Assembly: GCA_040220235.1 (NCBI GenBank)
Contig: JAVJTO010000021.1
DNA: 59,136 bases
DNA from: Coleofasciculus sp. B1-GNL1-01
Lineage (GTDB): Bacteria; Cyanobacteriota; Cyanobacteriia; Cyanobacteriales; Coleofasciculaceae
Direction: 5' to 3' (one strand)
In this document: positions 27,911 to 34,587 of the stretch, one piece after another
Layout of the letters: each line of letters starts with the position of its first letter
Position numbering within the stretch: the stretch's first letter is position 1
Translations under genes and position numbers: made by a program
Notes under the pieces: generated by a model
What the model saw: the letters and a program-made list of their open reading frames with translations, nothing else
Told to the model about the DNA's origin: nothing
Databases searched by the model: none

Positions 27911-28108
27911 TCCAGTATTTTTACCTTTAGTTTCGCGATCGCAACTCGATATTTGGGGAGTAGTTAAGGTTCAACATCTCAGCCAGGATACTGATCAGCA
28001 AGTGATGGACTTCCGACCAAAATTCGGGATTCTCTAGATAGGGATTCATCCCTGGAAACGGCGAAGGCATCATTTGGGTAGTTCTATGATAATGATCGCC
28101 TCCTTGGC

Positions 28109-29509
28109 TCAGCGCCCGATTTCAACGTCTTCAAGGATACCCAGTGCGTCAGGGACAAGAACAGCCACGGAATAGTAGGCGCTGATTAGATAAGACATAA
28201 TTGCCTTTTCGTTGATACCCATAAACCGGACGGATAGGCTGGGTTGATATTCATCAGGGATACCTGTTTGGTGTAAGCCAACCACCCCTTCATTCTCCTC
28301 ACCGGTGCGGAGTGCGAGGATGAAGCTCGTATTGGCTTTCGTAATCGGAATTTTGTTGCAGGGAAAGATGGGAACGCCACGCCAACCGAAGATCATCTGC
28401 CCGTTTACCTCAACAGTCTGGGGATAAATGCCACGGTGGTTACATTCCCGACCAAAGGCAGCAATGGTGCGGGGGTGAGCCAGGAAGAACTTCGACTTCT
28501 TCCGCCGAGAGAGGAGTTCATCCAGGTCATTTGGGGTGGGTGGACCGGTGCGGGTGAAAATACGCTCCTTGAGGGCTGCGTTGTGCAGCAATCCAAATTC
28601 GCGGTTATTAATTAATTCGTATTCCTGCCGTTCCCGCAACGCCTCAATCGTCAGCCGTAACTGTTGCTCAACCTGATTTATGGGTTCATTGTACAGATCA
28701 GCCACGCGGGTGTTGATCCGCAAAATGGTTTGAGCCACACTCAACTCATACTCGCGCGGTTTTAATTCGTAATCCACAAACGTCCCTGGCAATTCGGTTT
28801 CCACCGGATGTCCTGCTGATATAGCGATCGCGGCTTGACCGTGTTTGTCTTGGGGCTGTCTCAACCTGGCTCTAAATTGATCGACCTGAGCCTGGAGCGC
28901 CTCGGACTGGTTGAGTAACTGCCGAAATGCCTGAATCGGCAGGGATAATACTGTACAACTTGTTACCGCCCGTAGAGTGACATTCCAACTCTCCTGGGAC
29001 TCAACCATTTCTTGACCCCCAACATGGTCACCGTCGGCGAGTACATCTCGTAAAGCGTCTTCCTCATATTTTCCCGGTGTCATCTTGTTGACTTTACCGT
29101 GAGCAATGAGTAACACGCGATCGGCGGGTTGACCCGCCTGGACAATCACGTCACCTGCGGCAAACTCTTGTTGCACAAATCGGTCTGCTAAGGCATTTAA
29201 CACCTCAACATCGTCAAACCCGCGCAGCAAGGGTAGCTCACATAGGGATTGGGGAATCACCCGCACGTCGGTGCCCGTGTTGGTAAAGCTGACTCGTCCA
29301 TCCCCGACGGTATAGCGTAACCGACGGTTCACCCGATAAGCACCCCCCTTGATCTGCACCCAAGGCAACATCTTCAACAGCCACCGTGGGGTGATCCCTT
29401 GCATCTGCGGCACGGTTTTGGTCGTGGTTGCCAAATTCCGGGCGGCGGCTGTGTTCAAACTCATCTGCGGCTGTTCACTCTCAACCGGCAAATTGGCGGC
29501 ATCTGTCAT
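28109..29509 (-). CDS. Family 2B encapsulin shell protein with cNMP-binding domain insertion (cnb-type, copy 2)
   Basis: [24 protein letters not shown], internal cNMP domain, [31 protein letters not shown]; real start MTDAAN at 29509 by comparison with the paralog. Confidence 0.92.
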
Positions 29510-29880
29510 AAAAACTCCTTCGTTGTGGGAAACCCCGTGTATGCGAGACCGGGGATGAACACGCGATAGCGGTTTTAACCGCATACCCCTTTCGGGGGTG
29601 GAGGGGTATGGTTGCCCCTCCGATGAGGTAGGGTTGCCTCAGTCTCCTTTCGGGTAAAGTTAGCTTCGCCAATGTTATCGGTCGGTAACTATCCAAAAAG
29701 CACTGTTTCAGTGACCTTAAAACTGTTTAACTTTTCGGTTCTAGAGCAGTAAACTAGCTACGCATTTACTGGTAGGTCTTAAACACTTGCCGATAACGTA
29801 GTCAGTTAAGACTTAGGCTGGTAAGCACAGCTTTAACTTATTTGGCTTTTGCTCCGTGTCTTTAGACCGGGGTTGCTTAC
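29510..29880 (-). mobile_element. Non-autonomous IS200/IS605 (IscB-type) element lacking the iscB ORF
   Basis: Related subterminal hairpins at both ends (CCCCGGTCTAAAGACACGGAGC and CCCCGGTCTCGCATACACGGGGTTTCCC), a full omegaRNA, no ORF; right boundary inferred at the ATGA. Confidence 0.7.
29645..29880 (-). ncRNA. HEARO / IscB omegaRNA scaffold
   Basis: Minus strand: GTAAGCA...TGCTTAC 5' stem, CAGCCTAAGTC..GACTACGTT, CCTACCAGTAAATGCGTAGCTAGTTTACTGCTCTAG, AAACAG...CAGTG, long-range GTTATCGG/CCGATAAC pair, AACATTGGCGAAGCTAACTTTACC...GGAG: the HEARO hallmark segments in order. Confidence 0.8.
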
Positions 29881-29924
29881 AATTTAATACTCCATACTGC
29901 TCGTAACTCACAAAAAGATATACC

Positions 29925-30155
29925 GTAGGGTGGGCACTGCCCACCATGGGTGTCAACTTAAGCCACAACCCTTGCCCCTTCTAATTTTTAGCGACGGGGT
30001 TCCTGCTCCCTCGGCTGATAGCGATCGCCACCGGAAAAGGGCGGGTTGAATGTAGGGGCGGGTTTTACTACTATCATTGGCGGGTTGCACCCAGATATGA
30101 ATAAACCCGCCCCGACAAAGTTGTTGCCATAAGTTATCTGTAAAACCCGCCCCGA
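29925..30155. repeat. REP/REPIN cluster and a partial MITE end between the encapsulin genes
   Basis: GTAGGGTGGGCACTGCCCACC, GGTGTCAACTTAAGC, and nested GGGCGGGTT...AAACCCGCCCC arms. Confidence 0.7.
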
Positions 30156-30201
30156 CTTGCCCCTTAATTAGCTCTCGGTAGACAGCGTTCTCACCTTCTT
30201 C

Positions 30202-31611
<1,410 letters not shown>

Positions 31612-31944: not shown

Positions 31945-34587
31945 TCAGCTTTTGGGTCCTAACAATGAGCTAATCTGCATCACTGACGTGCCTAATCCTG
32001 TGGGAAGACTGGGTAAACTCTCCGCCTCTGGCTCCGCCTCTGTTTCTGGCTGGGGAGTCTCGGCTAAACTGGCGGCAATCTGCATCACTGACGTGCCTAA
32101 TCCTGTGGGAAGACTGGGTAAACTCTCCGCCTCTGGCTCCGCCTCTGTTTCTGGCTGGGGAGTCTCGGCTAAACTGGCGGCAATCTGCATGGCTGAGGTG
32201 CCTAATCCTGTGGGAAGACTAGGTAAACTCTCCACCTCTGGCTCCGCTTCTGTTTCTGGCTGGGGAGTCTCAGCTAAACTGGCGGCAATCTGCATGGCTG
32301 AGGTGCCTAATCCTGTGGGAAGACTAGGTAAACTCTCCACCTCTGGCTCCGCCTCGGTGTCTGGCTGGGGAATACCGACCGAACTCAACAACGATGTTAT
32401 CCGTGCGGCTGAACAACCTAAAGCGGTAGGCACATTGAACAAGTTCCTGGGGCTGGGATCTCGTTTAAATTCAAATTCTTTGTAGTAGTCGGAACCCAAG
32501 AACCATTTGGACAGACCAGACATCATGATCTGTAGTTGTTCAACATAGCTAAAGAGCAGCTCGCGATTCCTTGCATCTAAGTCAAAGTCCTCACAGAGCG
32601 CTGGGAGTTCGGTGGCGACGATGTGTTCAAACTCACGCACCCGCGCCGTGATCAGGTTGTTAACAATCTCAACCGCTTGTGCTACATCACAGTCAAGAAA
32701 ATGCTGAGTGATCAACACGCTATTGAAGAGTATGCCTTCAGATTCCATTTCTTTCTGATAGGATACGATGTCATTGACTAAACCAGAAACATTGGCAGCC
32801 ACTTTATGCATGCTTTGTACTAGTTGAGTGTCATAAAGCTCAGGGGGCATTTTCTCACCTTGGTTCAAGAGCATCACGAAATCAAAACCAAATGTCTTGC
32901 CGCTTGTCTCGATATAATCGATTGGGTCGGGGATACGATTTTGTGCCTGGTGGTCAAGTTGCCACGCCCAACTTTCAAATATTTTTACGAGGGAGCCCCT
33001 CATCTCCTCCTTGTCCTCGGCAGACAAAAAAGAAGTCATTCTCTGCCATAGATACACTAAACCACGTTCCGATGGGTTAGTTGGCATCAACATCGGACCA
33101 GAGTCGCTAGCGATCAATGCCAATAGTCGAGCCAGGTACACTCTACCCCCCACTATGTTGCGGGTCGCTAAGTAGCGTCCCTCAAATACACCATCAATGT
33201 AAAAACCCCAAACCTGGCCTTTTGCCGCCAGCTCATAGACAGCTTGGGGAGCATCCGGATAAATTAATGCAGACATCAACGCCACATCGATCGCATCAAA
33301 CTTCTGTTCATCCCAGAAACTGATGCCAGGAATACCGATCATTCCCATTTCGTAAGCCCATTCCTTAGATGTCCGTCGCCCTTCTTCTAGGTGCGGATTC
33401 AATCTTGTCGAAAAGGGCATATAAAACTCGGGTAGGGGCGTTTTTCCCACCGTCTGGAAAGGAATATAATTATAAGTTCTTACCCTTAGTCCCATCGCCG
33501 CCGGCGATAAGCCTATACGCGCAGCTGCCGTACCCAAGCCTTTGGGGCCTCCGAGTGCCGATTCCTTTTTCGATTCGGCGGGTAGGTATCGACCTCCGGG
33601 TCGGAGTTCCCACTCCAGATCCCCAGCCATCCAGTCTTGCAGTGCTTTCACATAGCGAAATACCCGGTATCGTGCCTCACTATCCAACCTATACTCATCC
33701 AATAGTGGGGGTAGTTCCACCGTCATGGTATTCTCGAACAGGAATAGTCGTGAAGTAACCAAGTCATTGACGACGTTAACAGCTTCCTGGATCTCCGTGT
33801 TGAAGAAGTGTTCCGCGACCACTACACAGTTATTGACCTTGCCGTCATCAATATCCTTCTGGTAGGAAATGATATCGTTGCGTAGACCGACGCTATCCGC
33901 GTAGGTGTCATTGAGTACCTGGATCGGTCGCTTGTCATAGAGCTCTGGTGGAATCTCAACCGTTAGGGAATGTTCGACCAAGTCGGCCGACCAAAACACC
34001 CCGCCTATCTGACGGCGCAGCGCGATGTATTCAACTGGATCGAGTATCCACTCCTGGTTATTGCCCGTGTTGAACAGTTCTCGTAGGTTGGCTTCTGCCA
34101 TGACTCGGATGTGTTCAACAAACCGCTGTCGCCACTGCACTGACATCGTTGGTGCGGTACGAGGCCACAGATCTGCTAGGGCGTATTCAGTCGGGTTCTG
34201 GGACTCCGGTATAGGAGTGGCTAGATCGCTGGGCATAAAGGACAGCAGTCGAGTCAAATACGCCTTTGCCTCTTTTATATCTGAACTTCCACCCTCGAAT
34301 GTTCGCGGAAAGTAGTCATCGACAAACCACCCCCAAACATACCAATCGCTGAGTAAGTCCAACTCCGGTGCCGGTGCATCTGGGTGAGTGGCAGCGGCAA
34401 AGCCGGCGAAATCCATCGCCTCAAAGGTTTCTTCATCCCATACGGTATCCTCATCCGAGCTGAGGATGCCCATCCGATACGCCCATTCCTTGCAGTGTAG
34501 GCGTGCCCCCTGTACATTGGGGTTCACACGCGCGGGCCAAGGCATATAAAAATCCGGTAATTCAAAGGGTAGCTGGCTTGATGTCAT
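31945..34587 (-). CDS. Two-domain germacradienol/geosmin synthase-like terpene cyclase with a repetitive C-terminal tail
   Basis: PFELPDFYMPWPARVNP start; N-domain DDYFP, NDIISYQKD and GRY; C-domain PEFYMPF, RIPDPIDYIE, NDIVSYQKE, with a degenerate Asp-rich motif (DGVFE). Confidence 0.85.
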   Translation of the reverse strand: MTSSQLPFELPDFYMPWPARVNPNVQGARLHCKEWAYRMGILSSDEDTVWDEETFEAMDFAGFAAATHPDAPAPELDLLSDWYVWGWFVDDYFPRTFEGGSSDIKEAKAYLTRLLSFMPSDLATPIPESQNPTEYALADLWPRTAPTMSVQWRQRFVEHIRVMAEANLRELFNTGNNQEWILDPVEYIALRRQIGGVFWSADLVEHSLTVEIPPELYDKRPIQVLNDTYADSVGLRNDIISYQKDIDDGKVNNCVVVAEHFFNTEIQEAVNVVNDLVTSRLFLFENTMTVELPPLLDEYRLDSEARYRVFRYVKALQDWMAGDLEWELRPGGRYLPAESKKESALGGPKGLGTAAARIGLSPAAMGLRVRTYNYIPFQTVGKTPLPEFYMPFSTRLNPHLEEGRRTSKEWAYEMGMIGIPGISFWDEQKFDAIDVALMSALIYPDAPQAVYELAAKGQVWGFYIDGVFEGRYLATRNIVGGRVYLARLLALIASDSGPMLMPTNPSERGLVYLWQRMTSFLSAEDKEEMRGSLVKIFESWAWQLDHQAQNRIPDPIDYIETSGKTFGFDFVMLLNQGEKMPPELYDTQLVQSMHKVAANVSGLVNDIVSYQKEMESEGILFNSVLITQHFLDCDVAQAVEIVNNLITARVREFEHIVATELPALCEDFDLDARNRELLFSYVEQLQIMMSGLSKWFLGSDYYKEFEFKRDPSPRNLFNVPTALGCSAARITSLLSSVGIPQPDTEAEPEVESLPSLPTGLGTSAMQIAASLAETPQPETEAEPEVESLPSLPTGLGTSAMQIAASLAETPQPETEAEPEAESLPSLPTGLGTSVMQIAASLAETPQPETEAEPEAESLPSLPTGLGTSVMQISSLLGPKS
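31973..32370 (-). repeat. Four near-identical 105-bp (35-aa) coding tandem repeats
   Basis: TCCTGTGGGAAGACT recurs at 31996, 32101, 32206 and 32311; unit SLAETPQPETEAEPE(V/A)ESLPSLPTGLGTS(A/V)MQIAA. Confidence 0.95.

Follow-up and report, generated by a model that had tools for sequence, protein, structure and literature searches.

ISC transposons of cyanobacteria insert at N/ATGA targets and share their ends with IS605 elements (Kapitonov, Makarova and Koonin 2016, PMC4810608). Meers et al. described PATEs with omegaRNAs, guides taken from the host flank and cleavage of the donor joint, and gave the TAM of the ISGst5 IscB as 5′-TTCAT-3′, which is ATGAA on the other strand (bioRxiv 10.1101/2023.03.14.532601). 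In Myxococcus, geosmin shells of mixed composition require the second protomer (PMC13739066). Here we analyse a 59,136-nucleotide stretch of Coleofasciculus sp. B1-GNL1-01 (the window; host assembly G000), in which a real, well-bounded and mobile omegaRNA PATE sits at the start codon of a geosmin-type shell gene, enc2 (Table 1). ORF-less copies and integration before ATGA were reportedly noted in the original HEARO paper. Elements of this type and their ATGA target have been described before; a link between that target and host start codons, with an element end that carries an SD, was not found in the literature searched, which consisted mostly of listings and the openings of abstracts, and the supplements of Kapitonov et al. 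and Meers et al. may show such junctions. The main text of PMC4810608 has 0 occurrences of 'start codon', and the part of the Meers et al. preprint consulted takes up neither host start-codon insertion nor an SD in the element end: 'ribosome' does not occur in it, and 'start codon' occurs once with a different meaning.

A first-pass annotation, made from the letters of the window alone, had recognised a protein-less omegaRNA element on the minus strand, and the Rfam covariance model HEARO (RF02033) bears this out: the match scores 141.3 bits (gathering score 83; E = 1.9e-29) and covers the model in full (1-211/211). The scaffold edge given at that stage, 29645, is on the right strand and lies 9 bases beyond the model limit at 29654. 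As had been claimed, no iscB ORF is present within the 371 bp element; the next long frame after it is the encapsulin, and the proposed limits of 29510 and 29880 are exact to the base by a contig of sequencing run X15 that joins 29509 to 29881. The related hairpins noticed at the two ends are real: both lie subterminally, terminal inverted repeats are absent, and a fixed target adjoins the left end without target duplication. The ends are common to the element and a TnpA-encoding element of the host (G000:C86), relatives begin and end in register with the 371 bp, and both insertion polymorphism and copies at different sites are observed, which are the marks of a non-autonomous IS200/IS605 element. 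On its sequence, the element is classified in that family as a protein-less ISC derivative, that is, a PATE with an omegaRNA.

The region 29500-29890 folds with a z-score of -2.79. The linker that takes the position of iscB contains a purine-rich motif resembling the one before iscB, together with two small related hairpins, and element bases 228-294 have no match in the full-length relative L051. The left-end hairpin region is 84% identical to the tnpA-side end of the C86 element over 77 bp; its stem carries changes on both sides in two of the five named pairs, with one pair mis-registered. By analogy with Meers et al. (bioRxiv 10.1101/2023.03.14.532601), the 20 bases of the 5′ flank (29881-29900) would serve as the guide.

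Table 1. Features of the enc2-site element and its host locus (positions in the window)
Feature	Positions	Strand	Remarks
Whole protein-less IS200/IS605-family (ISC/PATE) element	29510-29880	-	371 bp skipped in empty allele
HEARO/omegaRNA scaffold	29654-29880	-	RF02033, 141.3 bits, model 1-211
Right-end (5′) subterminal hairpin, predicted TnpA site	29852-29872	-	19/19 bases as in C86 far-end hairpin
Linker, position of iscB in full-length relatives	29590-29653	-	Kept among protein-less copies
Left-end (3′) subterminal hairpin and flanking guide bases, predicted TnpA site	29528-29559	-	Pattern match
SD-like AAGGAG of the element, 5 nt before enc2 ATG	29515-29520	-	-8.8 kcal/mol, family-wide
ATGA target site and predicted TAM; ATG is the enc2 start codon	29506-29509	-	ATGA after 78/80 related ends
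5′ flank, predicted guide, with displaced native SD GGAG (29890-29893)	29881-29900	-	Joined to ATG in empty allele
enc2, family 2B encapsulin shell protein, 466 aa, intact	28109-29509	-	NF041163 780.8 bits; PF19307 and PF00027
enc1, family 2B encapsulin shell protein, 469 aa	30202-31611	-	NF041163 768 bits
Two-domain terpene cyclase (geosmin synthase-like), 880 aa, repetitive C-terminal tail	31945-34587	-	PF19086 twice

The locus was followed in four of the 20 public sequencing runs listed. In X15, contig 16 (1,591 bases, depth 21.2) passes directly across the insertion point and skips the 371 bases. On the short side of the junction its 64 bases agree fully with the window, and the join is ambiguous by 2 bases; over 28108-29509 the contig has 88 differences from the window. 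Another contig of this run, 1,022 bases long and at depth 22, agrees with 29506-29867, a span that takes in the target, at 0 differences over 362 element bases, and as it matches nothing else on the stretch we read it as the same element, apparently at another site. Runs X1 and X2 cover the filled allele. A contig of X2, an RNA library, spans both junctions and was rejected as evidence of transcription, since its pieces mirror those of the DNA run X1, the longest record having 53,869 bases. Differences between enc2 of the assembly and these two runs are uneven, 67-72 over the 3′ part of the gene (28098-28951) and 5-6 over 29058-29974, which suggests that enc2 in the assembly may be recombinant or mosaic. 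The empty site for which relatives were to be searched was found in X15 only, none being seen among 52 family genomes or 61 order genomes. Close enc gene pairs occur among the 52 family genomes in G001 and G002 only, both of them filled; the enc pairs of G021 and G070 (73-74%) lack the element and have unrelated leaders.

The interrupted locus is of the geosmin type. As in the Myxococcus geosmin cluster, a geoA-like gene is followed by two 2B shell genes, and unlike in that cluster a mobile element lies at the start of the second (PMC13739066). Enc1 and Enc2 each carry an HK97-type SrpI-like shell domain and a cyclic-nucleotide-binding domain and exceed the NF041163 cut-off of 400 bits, as family 2B members do; enc1 and enc2 are 73% identical, and the Enc1 paralogue begins with the same residues as Enc2, MTDAAN. 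Starting Enc2 at an in-frame ATG within the element (29584) would lengthen the protein by 25 residues; this reading is disfavoured because homologues and enc1 start at MTDAAN. The terpene cyclase scores 969 bits with NF041168, under the cut-off of 1200, and is the likely cargo of the shell. Its C-terminus (window 31945-32500) holds four near-identical repeats with a GLGTSA-like core, which resemble the repeated cargo-loading motifs of geosmin synthase (PMC13739066). Rfam Sernc350 matches antisense to both enc coding regions were read as coding similarity. Across 29400-30300 a promoter scan returned 0 sigma-70-like sites, and the three terminator-like matches in the same interval are close to the number expected by chance (mean 1.2). 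The interval that separates enc1 from the element (window 29905-30160) contains short palindromic GC-rich repeats, which are rearranged in G001 and recur at a great many other positions (contig depth in the thousands).

Insertion took place, as first proposed, at an ATGA whose ATG is the enc2 start codon, and the reading frame is intact. At the filled junction the element ends in AAGGAG, 5 nt before the ATG, and at the empty junction GGAG stands 9 nt before it; the latter leader had been obtained by in silico excision and matches X15 to the base, and the element end does stand in for the displaced SD. Duplex energies with the anti-SD are -8.8 kcal/mol for the element end and -5.9 kcal/mol for the displaced native motif, calculated with a generic anti-SD 9-mer, the 16S tail being absent from the assembly. 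In the local fold the start region has a mean unpaired fraction of 0.65 in the filled allele versus 0.52 in the empty one. We infer that the element-borne SD at enc2 is used, and the stronger SD and more open start, or the 371 bases of structured RNA, could change Enc2 output or the mRNA.

Such changes raise the question of whether the host now uses the element as a domesticated cis-regulatory leader controlling the Enc2 level and hence shell composition, in line with the last step of the first-pass annotation, by which it may set the Enc1:Enc2 ratio. We regard this as very improbable, although the element occupies the site in 3/3 same-genus genomes that have the gene pair, offers the stronger SD and more open start, and precedes a second protomer of the kind that matters for mixed geosmin shells in Myxococcus (PMC13739066): an otherwise close strain (X15) does without it, the distant enc pairs of G021 and G070 lack it, and the same element stands before many unrelated genes and at non-genic sites. 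The occupants of the site in G000 and G001 are, moreover, different subtypes. The G001 element lies at the same base and is 98.3% identical to a copy at another site in G008 (G008:C78) and 91.8% identical, with 47 gap columns, to the enc2-site element of G000; the host genes of G000 and G001 are 93.3-95.5% identical. In a tree of 16 copies, several rows of which are partial and which is rooted at the midpoint, the G001 element groups with G008:C78 (98/90), apart from the G000 element. Relatives therefore do not share one conserved orthologous copy at the locus, which argues against one conserved leader; either two insertions at one ATGA or one insertion with later conversion accounts for the subtypes.

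To survey the family, we scanned a genome collection with a hairpin pattern that specified neither SD nor ATGA, which gave 88 stretches, 80 of them fetched. ATGA follows 78 of the 80 ends, 11-22 bases beyond the hairpin, so the expectation that other copies adjoin ATGA held. Six same-site repeats (L139, L158, L165, L182, L185, L188) were dropped, and L136 was left out for too little downstream DNA, leaving 71 non-redundant ends. An in-frame ORF of at least 80 codons, a cut that NdhL (70 aa) falls under, is opened by 31/71 ends, compared with 13.6% of 75,309 ATGA in G000; 19 of the 31 ORFs align from the N-terminus to a G000 homologue, Pfam adds PdxJ, RelB and dCTP deaminase as start-sited genes (14 proteins scanned, 6 without a family), and no clear internal methionine was seen among the 31. 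Gene starts make up 2.6% of all ATGA and 7.2% of non-disruptive ATGA in G000, as counted with a crude caller (5,324 genes) that undercounts starts. With at least 20 of the 71 ends on gene starts, p is 9e-8 against 7.2% and 2e-4 against a generous 12%, values that overstate the case because kin elements are non-independent. The element family is enriched at start codons, and for L052 (an rplI-like gene) and L053 the start-codon sites are confirmed against empty G000 orthologues; L053, whose empty orthologue is at G000:C162, displaces a native GGAG as at enc2.

The right end of a sister element bears on translation as well. In G000:C6 (L003:1501-1949), ndhC ends and ndhK begins in one overlapping ATGA. 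A 449 bp protein-less HEARO element lies exactly there, and its opening bases give ndhC back its Ser codon and stop. This site is empty in G003 and G008 and filled in G000, G001, G004 and G006. The enc2-site element shares its first four bases with the ndhC/ndhK element; stop restoration is one case, and those four bases are also the TnpA cleavage motif.

The SD at the left end is a family trait and not a local adaptation at enc2. A cut-off of -4.4 kcal/mol or better with the anti-SD 9-mer is reached by 47/71 ATGA-family ends (median -6.0), compared with 26.5% of 1,929 called ATGA starts, 15.2% of 2,000 intergenic ATGA and 9.2% of shuffled ends. In non-ATGA families of the same genomes it is reached by 1/11 CTAA-target and 0/23 RTGG-target ends (together 1/34), the 23 being those kept from 29 fetched RTGG loci after pattern fit and de-duplication. 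A second end type, that of the iscB element on C126, also has a purine run before ATGA. SD strength at start and non-start sites is alike (median -6.0 versus -6.1, p=0.57), so the SD says nothing special about the encapsulin operon, and the SD swap of the first-pass annotation stands at enc2 but is not specific to this operon. Among the 11 start-sited copies with both ends, 0/11 displaced a strong native SD and 4/11 have no SD of their own; 'swap' therefore fits enc2, and the family usually adds an SD where none was and can also manage without one.

These data can be taken further, to the proposal that the left-end SD evolved as an adaptation of ATGA-targeting lineages in which both ends repair insertion damage: the 3′ end would provide a new SD and the 5′ GTAA a new stop at a stop/start overlap, and the element could thus persist in expressed operons, from which it would draw its guide RNA. 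The proposal would add to the explanation that we prefer, and we hold it to be a serious possibility that falls somewhat short of an even chance. The excess of SDs at ATGA-family ends over CTAA and RTGG ends speaks for it, but only three or four end lineages are being compared and a Fisher p of 1e-10 overstates the difference. Restoration of Ser-stop by the 449 bp ndhC/ndhK sister, displacement of a native GGAG at a conserved gene by L053, the purine run of the C126 end type and the need of IscB elements for upstream host transcription (bioRxiv 10.1101/2023.03.14.532601) all agree with it. Against this, the SD is no stronger at starts than elsewhere, the start-sited copies include those without an SD and none that displaced a strong native one, the SD-less RTGG family precedes long ORFs in 6/23 cases (6/19 for ATGG, p=0.09, not significant), and the SD bases could be fixed by TnpA recognition.

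Several individual junctions were recorded in the survey. The end on C93 was considered as an ATGA end without SD and rejected, as family comparison gives an RTGG target; this RTGG-family iscB element (G000:C93:19300-20174, L234) ends without an SD at the start of a 372 aa BioB-like ORF, and the junction is the same in three other genomes. A Prochloron-titled 460 bp subfamily (L115, L123, L138, L142, L147) has lost the end SD, and 4/5 of its copies precede ORFs of 80 or more codons, pdxJ included. A weak HEARO match of 57.9 bits with a 15-codon isrB-like stub (G000:C64:11846-12042, L014) lies between two ribosomal-protein-like genes and ends at the ATGA that opens an RplR-like frame (names assigned by eye).

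Relatives of the element indicate how it may move. BLAST within the host assembly returns one close copy and three partial matches, and G008 has two partial copies, 96-97% identical to the element, at other sites; titled records carrying the family are all cyanobacteria or unclassified, many of them Coleofasciculus. At G000:C86:15811-17710 (L098) lies a complete tnpA and tnpB IS605 element with an ATGA target and both end hairpins shared: its tnpA-side end is also followed by ATGA, and its far-end hairpin equals the 5′ hairpin of the element in 19/19 bases. The C86 TnpA (PF01797, 125 bits) keeps HIH and the C-terminal Tyr in catalytic position, and most likely it would be the enzyme that moves the element in trans. 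Full-length relatives L046, L047 and L051 (1,613-1,617 bp) have the same 5′ end and contain iscB; L051 matches bases 1-227 of the element at 87.8% and the last part at 74.6%. Under the TnpA guide rule, base changes beside a hairpin could hinder excision. Three bases beside the right-end hairpin are changed here (AAAA versus TTTA or TTCA in most relatives), and the idea that they immobilise this copy is weakened by the presence of the variant at three sites and in the X15 copy. Palindromic inserts of 24-30 bases occur in the right-end hairpin loop of L022 (G001) and in the left-end loop of L042 and L044 (G008). A lone left end of the element's family, followed by ATGA, is found at G000:C126:6037-6109; it lies 650 bp upstream of an iscB element whose end is of another type, and it faces away from that element.

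Whether the omegaRNA could act with a protein supplied elsewhere was considered within G000, which has 19 HEARO matches, 13 of them above the cut-off, and three full-length IscB frames (C126, C122, C47). The cognate iscB is absent from the assembly. The C126 IscB passes NF040563 (464 bits), its own element end is followed by ATGA, and at 63-64% it is the closest in G000 to the IscB of the element's full-length relatives; its omegaRNA aligns with that of the element at 59%. The statement of the first-pass annotation that ATGA is a reported IscB TAM is in line with the ISGst5 motif, which reads ATGAA, and 'ATGA' does not occur in the part of PMC13180657 consulted. We also infer that the omegaRNA is transcribed, and its cleavage of the empty allele is plausible by analogy with the published model. 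The earlier claim that the guide would target the empty allele holds as ordinary donor-joint logic of IscB elements, not as a system specific to translation starts. No perfect guide match of at least 10 bases with ATGA exists in G000. A candidate self-target at G000:C9:-:18840 (14/16 match, then ATGA, where a 73 aa ORF starts) was rejected, as 2/40 shuffled guides gave one too; it could be a weak off-target or chance.

On this basis the omegaRNA might work in trans with the C126 IscB and guard or spread the insertion through cleavage of the empty enc2 allele, whether this lies on a sister chromosome or in incoming DNA; we consider this unlikely. The C126 IscB is full-length and its own end precedes ATGA, the scaffold is whole, donor-joint cleavage is shown for ISGst IscB (bioRxiv 10.1101/2023.03.14.532601), and two subtypes at the enc2 site in different species could be produced by homing or conversion. 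However, this IscB is 64% identical to the cognate protein and its omegaRNA diverges likewise, the enc2 site is ATGAC and 9/12 iscB-bearing relatives have ATGAA, G000 offers no perfect target, and in X15 the empty allele persists beside an identical element copy.

Taken as a whole, we think it quite probable that the enc2-site element is a selfish, non-autonomous IS200/IS605 transposon that has lost iscB and kept the omegaRNA and both TnpA hairpins; its identity, boundaries, target, empty allele, mobility and SD-like end are direct observations. TnpA acting in trans, most likely that of C86, would paste the element directly 5′ of ATGA without duplication. As ATGA is common as a gene start, the element would often land between leader and start codon, and as insertions within genes are purged, start-codon sites would become over-represented. 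As the left end carries an SD-like purine run 5-9 bases ahead of the target, the host gene would keep or gain a ribosome-binding site and stay translated, and a host promoter reading through the flank into the omegaRNA would supply a guide against the empty allele. Any effect on the Enc2 level would be a side effect and not a selected function. The presence of only one close copy in the assembly counts against this account, and many cyanobacterial starts have no SD (26.5% of the 1,929 called ATGA starts pass the cut-off), so the end motif may not be needed.

A start-sited insertion with its own SD suggests a way for such elements to enter functioning genes and leave them intact. Extending this, we float the idea, more doubtful than probable, that ATGA-targeting IS605/ISC elements are 'translation-neutral': their ends would rebuild the signals they interrupt (an outward SD on the left, a stop codon on the right), so that they could settle at start codons and stop/start overlaps in operons that are expressed and essential, use the host leader as guide, reoccupy favoured sites such as the enc2 start, and rewire host translation, here that of one subunit of a two-component geosmin shell. 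Should the SD be functional, IS605-type elements would have another means, next to splicing, of residing harmlessly in expressed genes, and the host transcription that the guide RNA of IscB elements needs would be accounted for. The enc2 locus is a clean test case, with natural empty and filled alleles, two subtypes at one site, and a likely helper transposase and an IscB of the same target in the genome.

IStrons combine a group I intron with IS605 or IS607 elements. Like the element here they are transposons that limit damage to host genes; the enc2-site element has no intron, and damage would be limited by replaced translation signals instead of splicing. It matches HEARO RF02033 over full length and above the gathering score and lacks the ORF for which that family is named. 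Like the PATE-like elements of Meers et al., it consists of ends and omegaRNA only and is predicted to be moved and used in trans, and in those elements too the TAM equals the TnpA target, with an orientation bias to the upstream gene. Coleofasciculus elements of PMC4810608 have TT/GG and TT/GA targets, unlike the ATGA used here, and the 371 bp element differs from the ISC transposons of that study in having no iscB. Among its closest described counterparts are ISC1-1_MA and IS605B-1_MA of Microcystis (PMC4810608), which likewise start with 5′-GT, have subterminal hairpins and reside in a cyanobacterial host; the Microcystis ISC elements are likewise inserted just 5′ of ATGA without duplication and share an end with an IS605 tnpA/tnpB element of the same genome.
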